64,000 nt of DNA. Source: Candidatus Kaiserbacteria bacterium (GTDB taxonomy: Bacteria > Patescibacteriota > Minisyncoccia > Phycocordibacterales > UBA2100). The notes under the pieces are model-generated. The model searched no databases and was not told where the DNA came from. It was given only the letters and a program-made list of their open reading frames with translations. Each line of letters begins with the position of its first letter. Position 1 is the stretch's first letter. Location: contig JACROD010000014.1 in the NCBI GenBank assembly GCA_016214605.1, positions 41,074 through 105,073 of the forward strand, in the 5' to 3' direction. Below are positions 43,272 through 53,245 of the stretch, piece after piece. Position numbers and translations under genes: made by a program.

Positions 43272-44399
43272 ATGAAGCTCTCCGATACGGCGGTGCCGCC
43301 AAAAAAGAAACATCCATTCGCTTCGATGATCGAGCGCGCCTTTCCACCGCCGGCCTCGCTTGACATGCAAGCGGTCGGGGTCGATATCTCGGACGCATCT
43401 ATACGTTGGGTTGTCCTTGAAGGAGAGCGTAGACATGCACGCGTAAGGCATTTTGGCGAACTTCCTCTCGATCCCGGGATCGTCGAGCAGGGGATGGTGC
43501 GCGATGTGCCTGCTTTGGCAAAGATCTTGCGAGAAATAAAAGGCCGACTCGGAGGTGTCGCGGCCGCGCATGCGGCACTTCCCGAGGAGAATGCCTATGT
43601 CTTTAGTATGCATGTGCCCGAAAAGCAGTCACGCGAAGAGGTGTTGCGGATGATCGAGTTTGAGTTTGCCGATCGTGTGCCAATCCTGCCCGCGTCCGCC
43701 GTTTATGATTTTGATGTGGTTACGGAACATGATGGTGACGAAGGGAGCGAGATTGCGATCTCGGTCTTTCCAAAAGAGGCTGCTGAAAAGTACGTTGCGG
43801 CCTTTTCCCAAGCGGGATTCGTGCTGCTTTCTCTTGAAGTCGAGGCGTGTTCGATCGCACGAGTGATCACGACGGATACTAAAGACGATTTCGTGACGTT
43901 GCTCGTGGACTTTGGGCGTACACGTACGGGTTTTGCGGTATTAAAACATGGGGTTCCCATATTTACGTCTACGGTAGAGATCGGAGGAGAAGGGGCGACT
44001 CAGGCGCTTGCAAAAGAACTCGGACTTTCTGCACAAGAGTTGGAGAAGTTTAAAGACGAAGAGGGTTTGCGCGCTAAGCCCGGTAGTCTCGGTCTTCAGG
44101 CCCTCTCGGGGACAGCCTCTGCTTTTGCCGATGAGGTCGCAAGACACTATCATTATTGGGATACTCGCCGCGACAAACAGACCGACCGCGCTACTCACGT
44201 GAGCCGTGTCGTCTTGGTGGGTGGCGGCGCCAATCTAAAAGGTCTCACTGACTACATTGCACGTCGTGTCCATGCGCGGACCGACCGCGGTGAGATATGG
44301 GGTAATGTGTGTCAATTCGAAGAATACATCCCGCCGATCGACTATCGCACCGCCCTGCAGTATGCGACTGCCGTCGGGCTTGCTCTTCGCGCCATTTGA
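43272..44399 (+). CDS. pilM: type IV pilus assembly protein PilM (actin-like ATPase)
   Basis: 375 aa; PilM/FtsA-like fold signatures (GVDISDASIRW…, …VVLVGGGANLKGL…). Confidence 0.7.
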   Translation: MKLSDTAVPPKKKHPFASMIERAFPPPASLDMQAVGVDISDASIRWVVLEGERRHARVRHFGELPLDPGIVEQGMVRDVPALAKILREIKGRLGGVAAAHAALPEENAYVFSMHVPEKQSREEVLRMIEFEFADRVPILPASAVYDFDVVTEHDGDEGSEIAISVFPKEAAEKYVAAFSQAGFVLLSLEVEACSIARVITTDTKDDFVTLLVDFGRTRTGFAVLKHGVPIFTSTVEIGGEGATQALAKELGLSAQELEKFKDEEGLRAKPGSLGLQALSGTASAFADEVARHYHYWDTRRDKQTDRATHVSRVVLVGGGANLKGLTDYIARRVHARTDRGEIWGNVCQFEEYIPPIDYRTALQYATAVGLALRAI

Positions 44400-44404
44400 T
44401 TATT

Positions 44405-44929
44405 ATGTCTAATCTTCTTCCAATACCAGCAATGCGAGAAATCGCACGCGCGCGCCGAGCGCATTTTCTGCTCGCGGCGTCGTTGTTCCTTTTAGGGGCG
44501 GGTATCGTGGCCGGGGTCATGCTCTTGCCGAGTTATTTGATCGTAGATAGATATCAATCTTCTCTTGAGGAAAGGATTGCGATATTGAGTGCGCCTGCAG
44601 CCGACAGTGCCGACAAAGAACTCATCAAACATATTCAGGAGCGGGTCGATCAGCTCAGGCCATTGATCGCTGCCACCTCCTCTCCGAGCGAGGCGATTGC
44701 GGCGGCACTCGCGTTGCGCCCCGCGGGGATCTCCATCGATCATATTAATTACACCATTGGCAAGACTGGCACTCTGCTGCTTTCGGGTTCTTCAGGTGCG
44801 GGAGATCAGGTAAGTCTGTATCAGCACGCCCTTGCCTCAAGCGACGACTTCGCGGGTGTATCGGTACCGGTGGGAGCACTCGCAGGAGTGGGTGACGGGC
44901 GTTTCAATATCACGATCGTCACAAAATAA
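44405..44929 (+). CDS. pilN: PilN-like pilus assembly protein
   Basis: internal ATG of track ORF 44309..44929, starting 6 nt after pilM stop; short cytoplasmic N-terminus, one TM helix, periplasmic domain. Confidence 0.5.
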   Translation: MSNLLPIPAMREIARARRAHFLLAASLFLLGAGIVAGVMLLPSYLIVDRYQSSLEERIAILSAPAADSADKELIKHIQERVDQLRPLIAATSSPSEAIAAALALRPAGISIDHINYTIGKTGTLLLSGSSGAGDQVSLYQHALASSDDFAGVSVPVGALAGVGDGRFNITIVTK

Positions 44930-44930
44930 T

Positions 44931-45488
44931 ATGAGCAAATCTACTTCGACATATGTTGCTTATGGAGCGTTTGTGGCGACGGTGTGCGTGTGGGCCGGAG
45001 TAGGATTCTTTGTGAATCATATCCAAGACAAGCGCATCGCCTATACTGCTCGAATGGCGGAAGCCGCACAGCAAGCCAATGTCGCGGCCGACGCGGCAAA
45101 GCTACGCATCCTTGCGAATAATAATAGCGAGCGCGCCGCGAAGCTCGATACGATCATGTCGTCCGACGTCCCGATGATCGTCGAAATGATCAAGTCAGTC
45201 GGTACGGTGGCTGGAGTGCCGGTGAAGATCAGTGGTGCCTTGCCGACCTCGGTACCCAAAAATCAAAAAGGCGTACAAGCGGTCGCTTTCATACTTGAAA
45301 GCACTGGCAGCTTCAGTGCGATGATGCGCGTGCTCGCTCTCTTTGAATCGCTCCCCCTCCCGTCGTCGATAGAGATCGTTGATTTGTCGCGGGAGGGTCA
45401 GGGGGCTGGGGTATCCTCGCACGTGTCTCAGTCGTGGCATTTAAACCTCAAGCTACGTGTCATCACGACCGCGACCGTGTCATCATAA
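44931..45488 (+). CDS. pilO: PilO-like pilus assembly protein
   Basis: internal ATG starting 2 nt after pilN stop; one TM helix + coiled-coil + C-terminal domain. Confidence 0.45.
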   Translation: MSKSTSTYVAYGAFVATVCVWAGVGFFVNHIQDKRIAYTARMAEAAQQANVAADAAKLRILANNNSERAAKLDTIMSSDVPMIVEMIKSVGTVAGVPVKISGALPTSVPKNQKGVQAVAFILESTGSFSAMMRVLALFESLPLPSSIEIVDLSREGQGAGVSSHVSQSWHLNLKLRVITTATVSS

Positions 45489-45496
45489 TACCTACT

Positions 45497-45820
45497 ATGA
45501 ACATCTTTCATCACATCAAACATCTACGCACCTATTCTTCCGAGCCGGAATATGCCCGCACGCTTTTTGTCTGGTACTGGCAGGTGCTCGTAGTGAGCAT
45601 GTTTGGCTTAGTGGTGTGTGTGTTTGTTTATGGGGGATGGCAGCTTTTTACCGTTATGAACGATGCCTCATCCGAACAGTCGAATACAACGATCGGCACA
45701 AAAAGCACTCCCATAAACTCTCTGCAGGTAGACATGGTCCTTCAGGGATTTGCAGAGCGACAGGCTCAGTTTGAAACCTACAAAGCGACCACGACCCGCA
45801 TCATCGACCCGAGTCTATAA
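45497..45820 (+). CDS. small membrane protein (pilus-cluster associated)
   Basis: 107 aa from internal ATG; one TM helix. Confidence 0.35.
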   Translation: MNIFHHIKHLRTYSSEPEYARTLFVWYWQVLVVSMFGLVVCVFVYGGWQLFTVMNDASSEQSNTTIGTKSTPINSLQVDMVLQGFAERQAQFETYKATTTRIIDPSL

Positions 45821-45869: not shown

Positions 45870-45941
45870 GCCCTTGTAGTTCAATGGATAGAACACCGGA
45901 CTTCTAAGCCGGCTATGGAGGTTCGATTCCTCCCGAGGGCA
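45870..45941 (+). tRNA. tRNA-Arg (anticodon TCT)
   Basis: 72 nt; anticodon loop cttctaa; T arm ggagg-ttcgatt-cctcc. Confidence 0.85.
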
Positions 45942-46085
45942 CTACTTCGCTCCGAAGCTTCGCAACGGAGCTTCGAAGTGCACGGCACTACAAATACCCA
46001 TATTACGTTGTTACCCTACAAGCGAAGTAGCCCTTCGTAGCTCAGTAGAGCGAAGGAGGGCATATTTGTGGCACGTACAACCGTG

Positions 46086-46333
46086 TTTGACAAATAGGTA
46101 TCAAGTATGCTACACTATCCAGTAGTTAGAACCTTGAAACAGAGCCAAGAAAAAGGCCGAACTACATAGGTGTAACCTATGTAGTGAATGTGCCACAGCA
46201 GAAAGCGACTCTCAAGGAGCTACGGCTCCGAGGTGCCGAATTCAGCAGAATTCGGCCAAAACATGGGTACTTTTCTGCTGTGGCAAGCCTTGGATGGTCC
46301 AAGGAACCGGCAGTACAACAAAAGGAGCTGACC
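46086..46333 (+). promoter_or_regulatory. promoter (TTGACA-17-CTACACT) and about 210-nt highly structured 5' leader of the DGR target gene
   Basis: hairpins ctacatagg/cctatgtag (46162-46184), 12-bp ccacagcagaaa/tttctgctgtgg (46193-46204 with 46272-46283), gccgaattc/gaattcggc (46235-46256), ggagc/gctcc, ccttgg/ccaagg; SD AGGAG at 46323-46327. Confidence 0.45.
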
Positions 46334-46906
46334 ATGTCACAGGACATGCTCGGTGGCTCAGGTGAAGACCTCGGCCTCATTATCGACTTCACGCAGAAGT
46401 TGCGTCATGGGGGGAGTGATTTTCGCGAAGCGGCGAAAAAGTTTCTCCGCAAGACACTTGTTACTTTGACGCTCGGCGACGGGCAAACAAAGACGCAGTT
46501 GCTTGCCGCCTACAACTGGGTCAGTGATGTCGCCCGCGCGTTTGTCATGTCGGAGCAGTTCCGCATGGCCTTTGTGCGCGAAGACGCCGACCTCGAGTTC
46601 GTCGAAGGCAGTGATTTCGATCACGATCCGTCCTCGGAAGAAGTACTCACCGAGCTCAAAAGGCGCGGCCTCGAAGAGCCGACCGAGGAAGATGCTCTGC
46701 GTTACGGTGCCACTTGCCCCGAAGGCAAGGACAAGCGCGCAGTGGTCTTCTTGCACAAGGCGAATCTATGGCGTGACCCGGGCGGCCACCTGGGCGTGTT
46801 GGTCTTCGACTGGGGTGGTTCGAAGCGCTACCTGGGCTGCTACCGGTTCGACGACCCGTGGTATCGGCAGCGCTCTCGGTTCGCCGGGCGCCGTCCCCGC
46901 AAGTAG
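46334..46906 (+). CDS. DGR target protein with C-terminal variable repeat (C-type-lectin/FGE-like fold expected)
   Basis: ATG with AGGAG SD inside track ORF 46184..46906 (track start is GTG inside leader hairpins); C-terminal 45 aa encoded by VR. Confidence 0.7.
   Translation: MSQDMLGGSGEDLGLIIDFTQKLRHGGSDFREAAKKFLRKTLVTLTLGDGQTKTQLLAAYNWVSDVARAFVMSEQFRMAFVREDADLEFVEGSDFDHDPSSEEVLTELKRRGLEEPTEEDALRYGATCPEGKDKRAVVFLHKANLWRDPGGHLGVLVFDWGGSKRYLGCYRFDDPWYRQRSRFAGRRPRK
46768..46902 (+). repeat. DGR variable repeat (VR)
   Basis: 135 nt matching TR 47243-47377 with about 17 mismatches, every one at a position that is A in TR. Confidence 0.85.
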
Positions 46907-46990
46907 CGCTTGGCCCTCGCACCTGTGCACTTGCACTCGGGCTTTTGCTCTTTGTCCTCGCGTCAGAAATGATGCGAGGGCTTTTGTTTG
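46904..46990 (+). other. GC-rich hairpin/terminator immediately 3' of VR
   Basis: gccctcgca (46912-46920) pairs with tgcgagggc (46970-46978), then TTTTGTTT; inner gtgca-ct-tgcac hairpin. Confidence 0.5.
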
Positions 46991-47242
46991 GTATAGTGAG
47001 AACGGTAGTAGGCGAATCTGCCGCAGATCACGGTTTGTGGCGGCTGAATCCAGTATCCTTCAGTCCGGAGCCGCAGAGATTACGGTCGATGCGGGAGCGA
47101 CTGTCGATATTCAAAAAACGAAGATACTTGGCGTGCGATGTCAGGGCATTACGATGCCGAATACGATACAGCCCGGAGAGTATTCGATGGGTGGTGGTAT
47201 CCGAGAATATCGGATGACAGGCATGGACGCCATTGCACGCAA

Positions 47243-47377
47243 ATGGCGTGACCCGAACGGCAACCTGAACGTGTTGGTCTTCGACTGGGATGGTTCGAAG
47301 CGCAACCTGAACTACAACCGGTTCGACAACCCGTGGAATCGGCAGAACTATCGGTTCGCCGGGCGCCGTCCCCGCAA
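47243..47377 (+). repeat. DGR template repeat (TR), adenine-rich (AAC codons)
   Basis: frame encodes N-rich peptide NGNLNVLVFDWDGSKRNLNYNRFDNPWNRQNY…; identical 3' end ggttcgccgggcgccgtccccgcaa shared with VR (IMH-like). Confidence 0.85.
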
Positions 47378-47407
47378 CTCTCTTCATTTCCCGACATATT
47401 CTCAAAC

Positions 47408-47758
47408 TCAAGAATGTGTCGGGTTTTGTTTTGTCAGTTGCCCCTGCCAGCCTCCGAGCATTTTGCCGATTTCGTCGCATTGCAGAGAAAGCGCGGCATA
47501 TTTTTTGTTGTCGAGAGACTTGCTTTCCCAGAGGATGAGGAGCAGGAGCTTTATGGTATCGAATTTGCGTATTGCGGTGCGCAGGTACGGCAATTTCTCT
47601 TGTTTGGCCAAGAATGCGGCAGCCGAAACCATCTCCATCACTTCGACGAACAGCATATCTACTTTTGATCCGACAGTGTACTGATGCAGTTTGGGCAAGG
47701 TAGAATGATACTCATGCCACAACAAATAAGCCTGTTTGATCCGCTCCAGAAGGGGCAA
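47408..47758 (-). CDS. avd: accessory variability determinant (Avd, four-helix-bundle family)
   Basis: 116 aa; C-terminal CDEIGKMLGGWQGQLTKQN parallels Bordetella bAvd AEVGRILGSWIARVNRKGQ; track start is TTG. Confidence 0.65.
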   Translation of the reverse strand: MPLLERIKQAYLLWHEYHSTLPKLHQYTVGSKVDMLFVEVMEMVSAAAFLAKQEKLPYLRTAIRKFDTIKLLLLILWESKSLDNKKYAALSLQCDEIGKMLGGWQGQLTKQNPTHS

Positions 47759-47763
47759 GAGTC

Positions 47764-48837
47764 GTGCGGGGGGGGGGGTACGCCTCTAGGATTGTTTTCA
47801 CTCATACCTACGAGGATATCATCTCTGTAGAAAATCTCCTTGCCGCGTGGCAAGAGTTCGTCCGCGGCAAGCGCCAGAAGCGAGATGTGCAGGATTTCCA
47901 ACATCGCCTGATGGACAACATCCTCGCGCTCCATCGCGATTTGAAAAACAAAACGTACCGTCATGGCGCATACGAAGCCTTCAAGATCAATGACCCGAAG
48001 CCGCGCGACATACACAAGGCGACCGTGCGCGATCGGCTCCTGCACCATGCGCTCTATCGCCAGCTCTACCCCTTTTTCGACCGCACCTTTATCGCGGATT
48101 CGTATTCATGCAGAAAAGGTAAGGGGACGCACAAGGCGATGGATCGGTTTCGGTCATTTGCATACCAAGCGAGCAAGAATCATACGCGTACTGTCTGGGT
48201 GCTCAAATGCGACATCAGGAAGTTCTTCGCATCAATAGATCAAGCAATACTACTCAACATCGTCGAGAAATACATTCCCGACAAAGACATCAACTGGCTC
48301 ATCAGTGAGATCGTCGTGAGTTTCCAGACCCACACAACTATGCCTATAGGACGATCTGTGTGTATGGGGAGAAAAGGCCTGCCTGACCAGCAGGCAGGTT
48401 TGCCGCTCGGCAATCTCACCTCGCAACTGCTCGTGAACATCTATATGAACGAATTCGACCAGTTCGTGAAGCACAAGCTCAAAGTGAAACATTACGTGCG
48501 CTATGCCGATGATTTTGTGGTCCTTTCGCATGATCGCGCAGAGCTCGATCGGCTCCTTTCCAAGATCGAATCTTTTTTGCAAGATAAACTCAAATTACAA
48601 TTACATCCCGACAAGGTTTCGATCTCAACATTCGCCTCAGGAGTGGACTTCCTTGGATGGGTGCATTTTCCCGATCATCGCGTATTGCGGACGAGTACGA
48701 AACGACGGATGATGCGAGGTATTGTCGGACTGGAAAAAGATGATATGCGCGTACGGTCGTACCTCGGACTGCTTTTGCACGGAAATGCAGGAAGGCTTGC
48801 AGTATGTGTTGATTCTCTATGCACACCGCTTGCATAG
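47764..48837 (+). CDS. DGR reverse transcriptase
   Basis: 357 aa; RT motifs including YADDFVV (YxDD) and GLPLGNLTSQLL; N-terminal ENLLAAWQEFVRGKRQKRD typical of DGR RTs; track start GTG. Confidence 0.85.
   Translation: MRGGGYASRIVFTHTYEDIISVENLLAAWQEFVRGKRQKRDVQDFQHRLMDNILALHRDLKNKTYRHGAYEAFKINDPKPRDIHKATVRDRLLHHALYRQLYPFFDRTFIADSYSCRKGKGTHKAMDRFRSFAYQASKNHTRTVWVLKCDIRKFFASIDQAILLNIVEKYIPDKDINWLISEIVVSFQTHTTMPIGRSVCMGRKGLPDQQAGLPLGNLTSQLLVNIYMNEFDQFVKHKLKVKHYVRYADDFVVLSHDRAELDRLLSKIESFLQDKLKLQLHPDKVSISTFASGVDFLGWVHFPDHRVLRTSTKRRMMRGIVGLEKDDMRVRSYLGLLLHGNAGRLAVCVDSLCTPLA
47768..47778 (+). repeat. G11 homopolymer tract within codons 2-5 of the RT ORF
   Basis: gtg cgg ggg ggg ggg tac. Confidence 0.8.
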
Positions 48838-48867
48838 AGTGCGGGGAAACAATGCTATGCTTTCGTT

Positions 48868-49020
48868 ATGAAATTCATGCAATCCGGTATTTTGCCACTC
48901 ATCGGCGCGATGATCGTTTTTGGCGTATCGCTCTGGGATTCCGCAATGACACTCGAAGCCGCGCTCGGTGTCCTGATCTTCCTATCGCTTTATCTGTTCC
49001 TTTTCAACAAGACCGGATAG
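48868..49020 (+). CDS. small membrane protein (50 aa)
   Basis: MKFMQSGILPLIGAMIVFGVSLWDSAMTLEAALGVLIFLSLYLFLFNKTG, not in track. Confidence 0.25.
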   Translation: MKFMQSGILPLIGAMIVFGVSLWDSAMTLEAALGVLIFLSLYLFLFNKTG

Positions 49021-49216
49021 AGTTTTTTACTATTCCCCAAAACGGTGGGATCTGTGTGCATCCGGAAGAGGTCGCGCAACCAAAAAGCCTCTGGCGATAC
49101 GCAAAACCAATTGTCCACAAATTCTTGCGATTTTCATCTTAGAAGTGTATTATGATCGTGTGTCCGTGGGCGCAAGCCTATTTCGGATAAGGAATTCCAA
49201 AGCCGAGGCGGACACA

Positions 49217-49663
49217 TCAGGTACCCTCTACATCTGTTGTTGTAGGGGGTTTTTGATTTTCGCCCAATTTCATCACGCTCCAAAACTGGATTTGACCCTT
49301 GCCTACGCGTCGCAGGACAATGCGCAGTTTGGTGTTTTGTTTCCCGACAACGGCAACCAGAGTCCAATATTCAATCTCTGCGAATACCTTTTTCCTGCTA
49401 CCTCCTATGGGGGAATAACGGCGTTCATAATTGTCTACCTTTTTAGCGTTGTAGATCACGGGGCGTATCAAGGGCACAAGGCCAAGTTTATACATCGCCT
49501 CTTTTGGATTTCTTGGGGTATTGTCTACCTTGAAACGTAGGTGGTTAAATCCTGCCATTGTGAAAATCACATATTCCCTCAGTGCGGGGCAATACATGGG
49601 AGTAAAGGTCTTAAACATGGCCTTACGTTCAAGAAGAAGTATTACGAATGGACTTGCCGACAT
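49217..49663 (-). CDS. hypothetical protein (AT-rich locus)
   Basis: 148 aa ORF in an AT-rich segment between the DGR and the giant surface-protein gene. Confidence 0.3.
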   Translation of the reverse strand: MSASPFVILLLERKAMFKTFTPMYCPALREYVIFTMAGFNHLRFKVDNTPRNPKEAMYKLGLVPLIRPVIYNAKKVDNYERRYSPIGGSRKKVFAEIEYWTLVAVVGKQNTKLRIVLRRVGKGQIQFWSVMKLGENQKPPTTTDVEGT

Positions 49664-49702: not shown

Positions 49703-52700
49703 ATGAGCGGTACGATTACTATTGCTATACTGATACTTGTTATTTTACTCGCCAACGATCTTACTATGAATCATTTCCGTATTGTGCGCTCCGCGGGGGC
49801 TTTTGTGACTGCTATTACTTTTATCTTCGCGCCAATTTCTCCCGCCCTCGCGCTTGGTGAACTGCCGACCGATGTCACGCCACCGATTATCTCTCTGGGT
49901 ACGGTCACTTCGATCGCCACGTCGTCTGCGACTATCACCTGGACGACGAACACGAATGCGGATACGCAAGTCCATTATGGGACGACATCGAGCTACGGTT
50001 CGAGCTCGTCGCTCGATTCGACCCTCGGCCTGACGCACTCGGTGACGCTTGCAAGCCTCTTGCCCAACATGACCTATCACTATCAGATAGCATCGCGCGA
50101 CGCATCTGGAAATCTGACTACTTCTTCCGATGCGACATTCACTACGAACTCATTGCCGGTCGTGGTCATTTCCGACACCACGCCGCCGTTGGTTTCAAAT
50201 ATCGTTGCTGCGACCGTTTCCTCCGTCGCCGAATCAATCGTGTGGACGACCAACGAATTCGCCACCTCGACTATCCGTTGGAGTACTGACACAAGCTACT
50301 CTTCGACGTTTCTCGTATCCGAAACGGCAGGCCCCACTCATGCCGGTGCCTTGGTCGGACTTTCGCCTTCGACCACATACCATTACTGCATCGACGCGAC
50401 CGACCTCGCGGGCAATACCACAAGCTCGTGCGGGCATACGTTTACTACCGCCGAGGCACCTCTCATTCCCGACACGATCGCGCCGGCCATTGTGGATGTC
50501 GCTTCTATGTCGCTTGAGCCGCATACTGCTACCGTGACGTGGACGACGGATGAGCTTGCGGTCTCGACGCTCGAATATGGCACGACGATGAGTTACGGCA
50601 CTTTGGCTACGCTTTCGGCAAGCGCGCTCCTTTCGCACGCGGCCGAGCTCACCGGCCTTACAGCAAACACCACGTATCACTATTGTCTCCACGCGACGGA
50701 TCTCGCGGGGAATATCACGAATTCTTGCGGCCACTCGTTTACCACGGCCGTTGTGGAGGTGATGCTCGACACGAACCCGCCGACCGTCTCGTCAGTTACT
50801 GTCGCGCCTATCACCACGACTTCGGCAACAATAGGGTGGACGACGGACGAGATCTCGGGTGGCTATGTGGAGTACGGCACGACCATCGGCTATGGCTCGG
50901 AGACCGTATTCGATACCAACCTCGCACTTACGCATGAAGCGACTCTTGCAGGACTAACACCCGACACCATCTATCACTACCGTGTCCACTCGCGCGACGA
51001 GGCGGGCAATACCGTGATAACTCCCGATGAGACATTTACGACCCCGCAAAGCGCCTCCGTTACCGCGGGGCAGGCCGCTTCGATACCGATTATCTCGACG
51101 CCTTCCGATACGACCCCGCCTTCGATACGCGAAGTGACTACGAGCTCCATCGGTTCGACCATTACGACGATAAACTGGACGACCAACGAGCTTGCCGTCT
51201 CGACCTTTGACTATGGCACGACACAAAGCCTCGGCTCCCACGCCGAGCTGTCCGGCAGTGGCTTGCTCACGCACGATGCGACCCTCGTGGGGCTTTCTCC
51301 GAGTACGACATACTACTATTGCATCCACGCGACCGATCTTGCGGGCAACGTCGCTGATTCCTGTGGCCATTCATTTGTCACCGGCGCACCTCCGCTCGTC
51401 CCCGACACGACCGCTCCGTCGGCTACCTCCGTCGTCGTTTCGTCGATTATCGCTGACTCCGCGTCGATTCATTGGACGAGCAGCGAGACGGCGGATTCGC
51501 AAGTGCAATACGGCACGACGATCAATTATGGAATGGAGACCCCCATAGAAGCGGAATCAAATTTTTCCGGTACTGCCTCACTGGCTAACCTTGCACTCAA
51601 TACGACGTATCATTTCCGCATCCGCTCATATGATTCGTCGGGGAATGTCGGGCTTTCGAGCGATTATACATTCACGACCGCCGCATCGTCGGGTTCATCT
51701 GGCACGTCCGCAAATGCGGCCCCCATTATCTCAGGGGTTGGCGCGGGTACGATCGGGGAAACGAGCGCGACGATCAATTGGACGACCGATGTGCCAGCCG
51801 ATTCGCTGCTCGAATATGGCAATAGCGAAAACCTCGGTTCCGGTGCGTCGTCCGCCACACTGACGACTTCGCATGCCATAACGCTCACGGGACTTTCGTC
51901 CGACACCAACTATCAATTCCGCGTCATTTCAAAACCGGCCGGCGGCGCTGCATTCCAGACGACCTCGCCAATGCATGAATTCACAACGCTTGCCGTACCC
52001 ATCATCGTCGATCCGGCAGCCAATATCACGTCTGTCTTGGCTCGAGTGGTCGGAAGCGACGCATCCGTATCATTCACTACTGATGAAATGACGACGGGAC
52101 AAATCGAATACGGACTGGATACTTCGTATGGTTCTGCCGTTGCTTGGAGCGAAGGGCGGGAAGCGGGCACGCTCTCGATCCCAGGATTGCAACCGGGGAC
52201 GTACCACTTCCGCGTGAAAGCGATCGATGTGGGCGACAACATTACGTATTCGGAAGACCACACGTTCATGATTGCCGGAAGCTCTTTCGCGACTTCCACA
52301 CAAGCGCAAACTCAAACTTCAGATGGCAGTTCTTCAAGTGTTGCGGCGCCCGCCTCCGCTGTGTCAAGTGCGGCTCTGGCGGGCAATGGCGGAGGCGGCA
52401 GTTTCGCACTCGCCGTCTCGACGCCGGTACCCAACGTCGTCACGGCGGAAGGTGTCGACTCGCAGATCGTGTTCGCGTGGAGGAATCCGGAGACTTCTAA
52501 TTTTGCCGGTACGGTCGTGCTTCGCAAAGCAGGCGGCTACCCAAGCGGTCCACATGACGGGACTGTGATCTACAATGGCTCGGCACAAACATTCACTGAT
52601 ACGTCTCTTACGAACGGGACGACCTACTATTACTCCCTGTATTCATACAATTCAACGAATCAGTATTCCAATCCGATACACGTATCGACTGCGCCGAAAG

Positions 52701-53245
52701 CGGGAGTGACTGAAGTGAAGATTGATAGAAACGTCGTCCTGGAAAACGCGCTTCCGGCGGAACACTTCATGGAGAATTTGAAACTCGGCGACCAGAATCT
52801 CGAAGTGGAACACTTGCAGCAAGTCTTGAACACTGTGAGTCTGCACCAGAGTCGCCTCACAACCGGTTATTTCGGTCCGCTCACACAGGCGGCACTCAAG
52901 AAATTCCAAGCCACGTATAATCTGCCCCAGACGGGAGTGACGGATCCGGCCACGCGTACAGTATTGGATTCGATCTCTCAAGGATGGATGGTTGAAGGCG
53001 CACCCACCGACATAGCGCTCTTGCAAAAAGATCTCAAGCGGGGCGATAGCGGCGATGATGTCGGCAATCTGCAGGAATTTCTGGCCTTCGAAGGAAGTTA
53101 TGACGAGGCGATCATCTCAAGTTATTTTGGCCTGCTTACTCATGGTGGCGTCAAAGACTTCCAGACAAGGTATGGCGTGACCCCCGTTTCCGGTATCGTC
53201 GGACCCAAGACGCGACACACGATACAGACAGTACTGGGACTCTAA
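49703..53245 (+). CDS. giant surface protein with about 9 fibronectin-III-like repeats and two C-terminal peptidoglycan-binding domains
   Basis: 1180 aa; signal peptide; repeated TPP…TWTT…YGTT…Y…THSVTL.GL.P.TTYHY…D.AGN modules; two PG_binding_1-like segments at the C-terminus. Confidence 0.75.
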   Translation: MSGTITIAILILVILLANDLTMNHFRIVRSAGAFVTAITFIFAPISPALALGELPTDVTPPIISLGTVTSIATSSATITWTTNTNADTQVHYGTTSSYGSSSSLDSTLGLTHSVTLASLLPNMTYHYQIASRDASGNLTTSSDATFTTNSLPVVVISDTTPPLVSNIVAATVSSVAESIVWTTNEFATSTIRWSTDTSYSSTFLVSETAGPTHAGALVGLSPSTTYHYCIDATDLAGNTTSSCGHTFTTAEAPLIPDTIAPAIVDVASMSLEPHTATVTWTTDELAVSTLEYGTTMSYGTLATLSASALLSHAAELTGLTANTTYHYCLHATDLAGNITNSCGHSFTTAVVEVMLDTNPPTVSSVTVAPITTTSATIGWTTDEISGGYVEYGTTIGYGSETVFDTNLALTHEATLAGLTPDTIYHYRVHSRDEAGNTVITPDETFTTPQSASVTAGQAASIPIISTPSDTTPPSIREVTTSSIGSTITTINWTTNELAVSTFDYGTTQSLGSHAELSGSGLLTHDATLVGLSPSTTYYYCIHATDLAGNVADSCGHSFVTGAPPLVPDTTAPSATSVVVSSIIADSASIHWTSSETADSQVQYGTTINYGMETPIEAESNFSGTASLANLALNTTYHFRIRSYDSSGNVGLSSDYTFTTAASSGSSGTSANAAPIISGVGAGTIGETSATINWTTDVPADSLLEYGNSENLGSGASSATLTTSHAITLTGLSSDTNYQFRVISKPAGGAAFQTTSPMHEFTTLAVPIIVDPAANITSVLARVVGSDASVSFTTDEMTTGQIEYGLDTSYGSAVAWSEGREAGTLSIPGLQPGTYHFRVKAIDVGDNITYSEDHTFMIAGSSFATSTQAQTQTSDGSSSSVAAPASAVSSAALAGNGGGGSFALAVSTPVPNVVTAEGVDSQIVFAWRNPETSNFAGTVVLRKAGGYPSGPHDGTVIYNGSAQTFTDTSLTNGTTYYYSLYSYNSTNQYSNPIHVSTAPKAGVTEVKIDRNVVLENALPAEHFMENLKLGDQNLEVEHLQQVLNTVSLHQSRLTTGYFGPLTQAALKKFQATYNLPQTGVTDPATRTVLDSISQGWMVEGAPTDIALLQKDLKRGDSGDDVGNLQEFLAFEGSYDEAIISSYFGLLTHGGVKDFQTRYGVTPVSGIVGPKTRHTIQTVLGL

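Follow-up and report, generated by a model that had tools for sequence, protein, structure and literature searches.

What does an uninterrupted run of eleven guanines do at the point where the two divergent protein genes of a diversity-generating retroelement (DGR) meet? The question is raised by a 64,000-nt stretch of the genome of a Candidatus Kaiserbacteria bacterium (GenBank assembly GCA_016214605.1, contig JACROD010000014.1, positions 41,074 to 105,073; hereafter the window), in which the run lies at the junction between avd, the gene of the accessory protein Avd on the minus strand, and the gene of the DGR reverse transcriptase (RT) on the plus strand. The tract is very probably a switch that acts on avd first and on RT only secondarily. 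From the comparison of this locus with its relatives, we consider it fairly likely that the run works as a heritable slipped-strand contingency switch whose primary target throughout the clade is the translation of Avd and hence diversification.

An earlier note on the window had pointed out the run and proposed that a change of ±1 G would shift the frame of RT. The run itself is borne out: G11 occupies positions 47768-47778, and the RT open reading frame (ORF) reads GTG (47764) CGG GGG GGG GGG TAC. It is also correct that neither ORF, as listed, begins with ATG, the start codons being GTG for RT and TTG for avd. The two genes are closely divergent, as the note had it, with 5 nt rather than 6 between the start codons when avd is counted from its TTG at 47758. 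G11 is the sole homopolymer longer than 8 nt in the 64 kb, the next-longest G run having 6 nt, and about 0.03 runs of this length are expected in the window at a G fraction of 0.269.

The repeat at the avd/RT junction in related loci

The comparison covered 160 related loci, of which 80 came from GTDB species genomes and another 80 from metagenomes, with an RT identity of 59-76%; about 152 of them were assessable for the tract, and the analyses of frames and start codons were made on 138. The comparison of RT 5' ends in related genomes, which the earlier note had named as a check, found the tract kept in place: a run of at least six G lies at the same avd/RT junction in 139 of the ~152 loci, across RT identities given as 59-78%. 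The tract is uninterrupted, with a modal length of 9-10 nt (6 nt in 3 loci, 7 in 7, 8 in 18, 9 in 43, 10 in 43, 11 in 16, 12 in 4, 13 in 3 and 14 in 2). Every related locus encodes an Avd homolog divergently from RT, and 7-11 nt separate the tract from the first Avd codon that could be aligned. Some loci carry a five-codon insertion and keep about the same spacing between the tract and its own TTG. Conservation of the flanks is limited to the avd start region and to the T-A that follows the tract.

In the 741 kb of these loci, G/C runs of at least 8 nt occur 128 times at the junction and 9 times elsewhere. Of the latter, six are really junction tracts, five of them at contig or locus starts beside RT and one beside avd. 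This last run, a G9 in locus L141, adjoins avd and is 240 nt away from RT, which indicates that the tract travels with avd. An uninterrupted, slippable repeat of a kind nearly absent elsewhere in 741 kb is what is expected of a contingency locus.

Sixteen assessable loci have no run of at least six G, and most of these carry another simple repeat at the junction (Table 1); L012 and L095 have a decayed G run there. The repeat units are 1, 2, 4, 4, 7 and 7 nt long, and none is a multiple of 3. The substitute repeats contain no stop codon in any minus-strand frame, and two of them, (TGAC)n and (ATTGCTG)n, are interrupted by stops in each plus-strand frame. An ATG, the repeat and Avd are in one frame in L144, L040, L119 and L113 and out of frame in L030, L129, L055, L048, L140 and L028. 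Since one slippery repeat is swapped for another, it is the repetitiveness, that is, the mutability of length, that appears to be selected and not a chemistry specific to G. A non-triplet repeat inside an ORF is a further property of contingency loci found here. An intramolecular G-quadruplex was considered and rejected, as most tracts (7-10 nt) are too short and repeats other than G can substitute.

The length of the repeat differs between sequences that are otherwise identical. L004 (GenBank MFLL01000032) has G9 with Avd joined to an upstream start, and L161, L162 and L163, from three other assemblies, and 12 similar contigs have G10 and are unjoined, with 400-nt flanks 100% identical to those of L004 on both sides. 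For L161 and L163, both G10, and for the related L164-L166, gene callers give avd as a fragment of 80 aa. Likewise, L134 has G10 and L138 has G8 between identical 300-nt flanks, and (GT)8 in L113 is joined while (GT)9 in L028 is unjoined, with flanks 99.7-100% identical. Such polymorphism of repeat number is also characteristic of contingency loci. Judged from these pairs, repeat length is changing much faster than the surrounding sequence.

Seven IMG/VR contigs (L167-L173) carry a homologous divergent avd-RT pair in which both genes begin with an ordinary ATG and the two starts abut or overlap by a few nucleotides, and they have no repeat. The repeat is thus an add-on and not part of the core machinery.

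Several side observations concern the assemblies themselves. Contigs often break at the junction tract, with implausible ends in L006 (positions 1-49, C49), L082 (14-29, G16) and L113 (9-20, C12); L090, L100 and L139 also start there. The extensions in L006, L082 and L113 look like assembly breaks with technical growth of the homopolymer at a truly repetitive site. In L165 (MFLR01000012), about 30 nt upstream of the tract, the N-terminal region of avd reads AATGCGAAAGCAC, as against AATGCGCTCAAGCAC in otherwise identical loci; the region is thus shorter by 2 nt, which alters the frame a second time near the tract. Since L164 has a run of N at this place, the difference is possibly an assembly problem. 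Two cassettes of this type occur in one metagenome-assembled genome (MAG) or contig in three cases (L004 and L005 in MFLL01, L010 and L011 in JBBTXY01, and L164 at 365-373 and 642-651); with their own tracts of different length or phase (G9, G10), the paired cassettes would switch independently. Cassettes of the type found in the candidate phyla radiation (CPR) are also present in bins assigned to other groups, namely L045, L047 and L133 ('Gammaproteobacteria'), L023 ('Bacteroidetes') and L036 (Azotimanducaceae), which could be due to mis-binning or to horizontal transfer. In L047 and L133, avd directly abuts RT and no repeat is present. An RT with 66% identity (P0098) is attributed to Methylocystis hirsuta, a cultured alphaproteobacterium, on a 3.78-Mb contig; should this locus have the same kind of junction, it would be accessible to experiment.

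Reading frames and start codons on the two strands

On the minus strand, a conserved His codon of RT (47803-47805 in the window) reads as ATG. The frame from this ATG to the tract is open in 109 of the 109 loci in which the codon is CAT, with 0 stops in 1152 codons; in the other two minus-strand frames we counted 149 stops in 1131 codons and 152 in 1058, i.e., 13-14% (Fisher p about 4e-59). The codon itself is CAT in 109 loci and CAC in 2, whereas CAT makes up 52% of the other His codons of these RT genes (p about 1e-27). Two more codons of RT, in the nearby E-D-I-I motif, are biased in the same manner: Asp is GAT in 85 loci vs GAC in 2 (p about 4e-22), and the first Ile is ATC in 116 loci vs 19 other Ile codons, with 36% ATC elsewhere (p about 7e-32).

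In position-specific base frequencies, these biased codons spell TGnTATCCT-N7-ATG on the minus strand. From the measured codon biases we infer that TGnTATCCT may be an extended -10 element that would give a leaderless avd mRNA beginning with the ATG. No Shine-Dalgarno sequence precedes this ATG in any of the 109 loci, which fits a leaderless mRNA. The effective start of avd is probably this ATG (47805-47803), overlooked in the earlier note; the note's suggestion that each promoter is forced into the other gene agrees with the strong constraint on synonymous sites in the RT codons.

With regard to the E-D-I-I codons (47813-47823, and in 139 relatives), it should be noted that GAT and ATC together make the palindrome GATATC, which yields -10-like hexamers on both strands. 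The -10-like TATCAT of this region on the plus strand was picked up by a promoter scan at 47795-47822. We did not find a convincing generic sigma-70 promoter flanking the tract, this single plus-strand hit being within chance expectation.

Between the tract and the N-terminus of Avd, 137 of 138 loci are free of in-frame stops. The codon at the position of the TTG start in the window is TTG in 56 of 107 loci and a canonical start (TTG, GTG or ATG) in 60 of 107; TTG makes up 60% of the Leu codons at the local avd start vs 17% elsewhere in avd. At roughly half of the loci, the local TTG probably offers avd a weak alternative start. The possibility that the poly-C run serves as a ribosome-binding site or -10 element for this TTG was rejected, as no motif supports it and the codon is not a start in 44% of loci.

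The frame of the ATG coincides with that of avd (offset 0) in 25 loci and is displaced from it by +1 in 44 and by +2 in 39. When every canonical upstream start is counted, 54 of 138 loci have Avd joined and 84 have it unjoined, and the joined share is about the one-third expected of a freely switching tract. In 34 of the 84 unjoined loci there is no canonical start at all for a full-length Avd. The body of Avd is nevertheless intact (110-131 codons) in 79 of 79 assessable unjoined loci, so these are not decaying pseudogenes.

In the window, at G11, the minus-strand ORF reads MSENNPRGVPPPPHDSCPFW... and is out of frame with avd. At G9 or G12 it would read MSENNPRGVPPP(P)ARLLPLLERIKQAYLLWHEYH..., i.e., Avd, and at G10 or G13 Avd would join a GTG at 47801. 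G11 is thus the only phase of the window without an upstream avd start. We read the window copy as a 'low/off' state, in which RT would be open from the GTG at 47764 and Avd would depend on the weak TTG.

On the plus strand, 87 of 138 loci (class B) have a start codon for RT downstream of the tract, most often at a distance of 13 nt; 69 of these starts are ATG. In some loci an in-frame stop separates the tract from the start. The other 51 loci, including the window, have no ATG, GTG or TTG between the tract and the conserved RT N-terminus I-Q-F-T-H-x-Y-E-D-I-I-S (class A), so that RT would depend either on a start upstream of the tract or on a non-canonical codon. A non-canonical start at a conserved ATT/ATC codon, which is ATG in L107, L007 and L109, is possible. 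In 24 of the 51 class A loci there is no in-frame upstream RT start in the assembled phase, and ahead of the tract the plus-strand frame is closed in all but 79 of the 138 loci. In 7 of 10 RT clusters formed at 90% identity, one RT body appears with two or three different upstream peptides, which are alternative frames, or is called truncated.

In the window itself, RT retains a canonical start whatever the length of the tract, namely GTG 47764 at G8/G11, ATG 47684 at G9/G12 and TTG 47736 at G10/G13, so a change of ±1 G would not close the RT ORF, and the frameshift proposed in the earlier note fails here. An RT start upstream of the tract with no alternative start is not what we found. The proposal of a slipped-strand switch stands as far as the repeat is concerned, since the tract is conserved, uninterrupted, replaced by non-triplet repeats and length-polymorphic; the part that does not stand is the target, which is probably avd more than RT, since avd is the gene whose frame regularly runs through the tract.

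A hexamer TAnnnT directly follows the tract in 37 of the 87 class B loci, and in 23 of the 87 a TAnnnT lies exactly 7 nt before the RT start, where about 1 case is expected; in the window the hexamer after the tract is TACGCC and does not conform. In the loci with TAnnnT, RT may be leaderless with the poly-G in its promoter spacer, and tract length could then affect RT transcription.

Two further roles of the tract in RT expression were considered. An N-terminal extension of RT encoded antisense to avd ('MPQQISLFD...GGG', 'MRSSTGKIRRGGG') was rejected as a conserved coding feature, as the upstream frame is so often closed and the two peptides are alternative phases of the same DNA. The poly-G as a Shine-Dalgarno sequence of RT was likewise set aside for the many loci that have an AGGAG-like motif of their own or TAnnnT-N7-ATG; in loci of the window type it may act in this way.

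A proposed mechanism and its alternatives

According to the mechanism that we propose, the G/C run would be a hypermutable repeat located where the 5' ends of the divergent genes avd and RT overlap. avd would be expressed from the ATG antisense to the RT His codon, on a leaderless mRNA whose -10 element is hidden in the E-D-I-I codons. The minus-strand ORF would comprise 8-13 codons, then the repeat read as poly-Pro and then, only at in-frame lengths, the four-helix Avd protein. Replication slippage would alter the length of the repeat heritably and reversibly, and cells would alternate between full-length Avd made from the strong start and little or none, with the weak local TTG left as a possible avd start in about half of the loci, including the window.

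In the DGR of the Bordetella phage, bRT, Avd and the DGR RNA were together necessary and sufficient for cDNA synthesis, according to the abstract of PMC6182149. Since Avd is required there, gating Avd would gate diversification: mutagenic retrohoming would depend on the switch because the RT-Avd complex is needed for cDNA synthesis in this model DGR. In loci with no RT start downstream of the tract, such as the window, a change of length would also give RT a different start codon and a different leader peptide; in many others, the tract adjoins a -10-like box 7 nt before the RT ATG and may tune RT transcription. What the sequences show directly is that the tract is conserved, that the minus-strand ORF and its codon biases exist, how the frames relate to one another, and that near-identical loci differ in repeat length; the use of the ATG and of its promoter, switching within populations and a limiting effect of the Avd level on diversification are inferred. 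We rate at about even the chances of the broader statement that a dedicated contingency switch is built into a large clade of DGRs of the Patescibacteria, i.e., a repeat shared by antisense-overlapping and probably leaderless avd and RT genes that would set the machinery on/off or high/low stochastically, in a heritable and reversible manner.

Several observations weigh against this mechanism. The lack of a Shine-Dalgarno sequence (present in 0/109 loci) counts against use of the ATG unless the mRNA is leaderless. Joined loci (39% with any start, about 23-30% with ATG) are no more frequent than chance would make them, and selection for the joined state is thus not demonstrated. The local TTG is enriched, and the IMG/VR relatives start avd exactly there; Avd may be made at all lengths in about half of the loci, the window included, in which case the switch would be high/low and not on/off. 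Some length differences could be homopolymer miscalls, e.g., in nanopore-based MAGs such as L002, to which the (GT)n and (TGGC)n cases and the alleles found in several independent assemblies are less exposed. Moreover, the variable repeat (VR) of the window carries 16 A-to-N changes although avd is unjoined, which means that the element was active in the lineage at some time.

The alternative of the earlier note, that RT starts just upstream of the tract and that ±1 G turns it off, is unlikely. The class A loci (51/138, with the window) do need an RT start upstream of the tract if the start is canonical, 24 of them have none in frame in the assembled phase, the frame from the tract to the RT N-terminus is stop-free in every class A locus (among the first 72 loci analysed), and RT is called truncated in some cluster members. 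However, 87/138 loci start RT downstream of the tract, mostly with ATG (69) and in some cases after an in-frame stop, (TGAC)n and (ATTGCTG)n close all plus-strand frames, the upstream plus-strand frame is open in 79/138 loci only, and the window has an RT start in all phases. It is also rather doubtful that the tract works through its length as a spacer between promoter elements of RT and/or avd and so tunes transcription rather than translation. The location between divergent genes would suit such a spacer, as would the TAnnnT hexamers (37/87 after the tract and 23/87 at 7 nt from the RT start, against ~1 expected), which place the poly-G at about -13 to -22 of a candidate RT promoter. But the repeats of 40-70 nt, (TGGC)10-11, (TGAC)13 and (ATTGCTG)10, cannot be a 17-nt spacer, we found no consistent -35 element, the window has TACGCC as its hexamer, and the always-open minus-strand frame, the CAT bias and the non-triplet units would be left unexplained. 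A spacer effect on the RT side can coexist with a switch acting on avd.

We regard as quite improbable a recoding of avd, by slippage of RNA polymerase or by frameshifting or stalling of the ribosome on CCC-CCC-CCC, which would give a fixed fraction of Avd at any tract length or a stalled leader that controls the TTG. The tract does read as PPP or PPPP in a conserved minus-strand ORF, most loci are out of frame with avd intact, and TTG is enriched 7-9 nt past the tract; di-, tetra- and heptanucleotide substitutes are, however, unfit for homopolymer slippage or poly-Pro stalling, and length differences at the DNA level between identical flanks were directly observed. Least probable by far is the artefact that the earlier note had offered as its alternative, a poly-G of two-colour sequencing chemistry or a chimeric join at a low-complexity site. 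It would account for the contigs that break at the tract and for the artificial extensions C49, G16 and C12, but it fails before the synteny of avd, tract and RT, which recurs in over 130 independent assemblies and at 139 independent loci obtained by many projects and assemblers, the homology of both flanks to the corresponding genes elsewhere, and the reproduction of alleles in several assemblies. Judged from this synteny, the existence of the tract is biological, and its exact length in any single assembly is less certain. The preferred explanation remains a length switch that would act primarily on the translation of Avd.

The DGR of the window, its surroundings and comparison with known systems

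The coordinates of the cassette and the substitute repeats of related loci are collected in Table 1. The cassette has what defines a DGR: an RT of the RVT_1 family beside a template repeat (TR) and VR, adenine-only differences between them, and Avd. All 16 mismatches between TR and VR fall on TR adenines (16/16) and in codon positions 1-2 of the target ORF. The TR sits 390 nt upstream of RT, and blastn found no third TR copy and no second VR target in the window. The bAvd match of avd scores 40.3 bits with a Pfam cut-off of 40. The RT is 100% identical to an NCBI protein of Candidatus Kaiserbacteria of equal length, and its nearest homologs belong to loci with the same avd-RT layout in CPR genomes.

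Table 1. Features of the DGR cassette in the window, and repeats found in place of the G run at the junction of related loci (VR, variable repeat; TR, template repeat).
Feature	Position	Strand	Description
Target gene	46184..46906	+	240 aa, no Pfam match; VR in the last ~45 codons (C-terminus)
VR	46768..46902	+	135-nt direct repeat of TR; 16 mismatches
Hairpin followed by T-run, ~50 nt past VR	46954..46981	+	consensus scan: 12 pairs, then TTTTGTTT
TR	47243..47377	+	30 A's, 16 of them changed in VR
Strong hairpin and T-run directly after TR, overlapping the 3' end of avd	47390..47423	+	13 pairs, then TTTTGTTTTG
avd body	47408..47758	-	116 codons counted from the local TTG at 47758; Pfam bAvd E = 5e-10
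Alternative RT starts	47684..47763	+	ATG 47684 (and ATG 47713) at G9/G12; TTG 47736 at G10/G13; antisense to the avd N-terminus
RT as annotated	47764..48837	+	357 aa, GTG start 4 nt before the tract; tract = Gly-Gly-Gly; RVT_1 E = 5e-26
G11/C11 simple-sequence repeat, proposed switch	47768..47778		homologous tract G6-G14 in 139 loci
Leader of the long avd ORF	47779..47805	-	from ATG 47805-47803, antisense to RT His codon 14; reads MSENNPRGV into poly-C
Candidate extended -10 (TGnTATCCT)	47813..47821	-	7 nt upstream of the minus-strand ATG; within RT codons E-D-I-I
(GT)n	junction		L028, L048, L113, L119, L140
(TGGC)n	junction		L030, L129
(TGAC)n	junction		L144
(ATTGCTG)n	junction		L040
(TGGCGGC)n	junction		L055

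The hairpin directly after the TR could terminate the TR transcript and leave the TR RNA and the RT mRNA separate. A GC-rich inverted repeat often follows the VR in other DGRs, and the hairpin past the VR could be such a post-VR inverted repeat or a terminator-like structure. No Rfam match at E <= 1 was found in 46000-49500 on either strand.

Immediately downstream of the DGR, an ORF of 1180 aa (49703-53245, plus strand) contains six repeats resembling purple-acid-phosphatase-N/FN3 domains and two C-terminal peptidoglycan-binding domains; its product is probably a large surface protein, and blastn of the window found no VR copy in it. Directly upstream of the target gene lie a pilus assembly gene of the PilM type, then three small ORFs that resemble membrane proteins and match no Pfam family, and a tRNA-Arg (43272-45820, plus strand, and 45870-45942). 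In the Rifle relatives, a T2SSE/PilB-like ATPase follows RT. This clade of DGRs seems to sit among pilus genes.

Phase variation by simple sequence repeats is well known, for example at poly-G loci of C. jejuni (PMC4965091, PMC8355987). The tract resembles the poly-G/C contingency loci of Campylobacter jejuni, Neisseria and Haemophilus (PMC4965091, PMC8355987, PMC5084427) in being a run of 7-14 nt near the 5' end of an ORF, in that the frame sets the joined or unjoined state, in its length polymorphism, and in the presence of other non-triplet repeats in homologs. Unlike those loci, it would gate the gene of a hypermutation accessory protein and not a surface or restriction-modification gene, it is common to two divergent genes that overlap in antisense, and its hosts are uncultured Patescibacteria. 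Repeats that act as promoter spacers are represented by the poly-G of porA and the poly-C of opc in N. meningitidis, the poly-C of the Bordetella fim genes, and the (TA)n between the divergent hifA and hifB of H. influenzae. With these, our tract shares a position near promoter elements of divergent genes and, in a subset of loci, a poly-G that abuts the -10-like box of RT; it differs in that the stronger signal here is translational and lies on the avd strand, and in the repeats of 40-70 nt that are unfit as spacers.

Among DGRs, the window is similar to that of Bordetella phage BPP-1 (avd-TR-brt; PMC6182149) in having RT, Avd, adenine-specific differences between TR and VR, and a VR at the C-terminus of the target. 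It differs in that avd is divergent from RT and lies between TR and RT, the 5' ends overlap, and the avd leader contains a repeat; the literature examined describes no comparable switch in BPP-1. The gene order and orientation are exactly those of the 'B3' architecture, TR-(avd)-RT, which Wu et al. (2018, PMC5758913) report for 90% of their CPR DGR set; a search of that paper by terms turned up neither a repeat tract nor an upstream start of avd nor an overlap of avd with RT. The phage-like IMG/VR loci L167-L173 have a homologous Avd, an RT of 47-62% identity and the same head-to-head arrangement and, unlike the window, no repeat tract, and thus provide a natural 'no-switch' control. We found no literature linking DGRs, avd or CPR bacteria to a repeat-tract switch, although an earlier mention in Paul et al. 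2017 is possible. What would be new here is the proposed repeat-tract switch on a DGR; phase variation by simple sequence repeats and the B3 architecture were already known.

To our knowledge, the regulation of DGR activity is largely unexplained, and unrestrained mutagenesis at adenines should be costly to the cell. If the proposed switch is real, the start of avd would have to be re-annotated to the upstream ATG opposite RT, with overlapping avd and RT 5' ends, and those avd and RT genes of CPR genomes that have been called 'truncated' or 'frameshifted' would represent switch states and not pseudogenes. The phase of the tract should then correlate with VR microdiversity in existing metagenome time series. 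The arrangement might also be of use as a compact design for tunable in vivo mutagenesis tools. Taken together, a second-order mutator would govern a first-order targeted mutator in these bacteria, making DGR activity rare yet always available in the population: most cells would retain the current variant of the receptor or ligand-binding protein, and a minority would diversify it.

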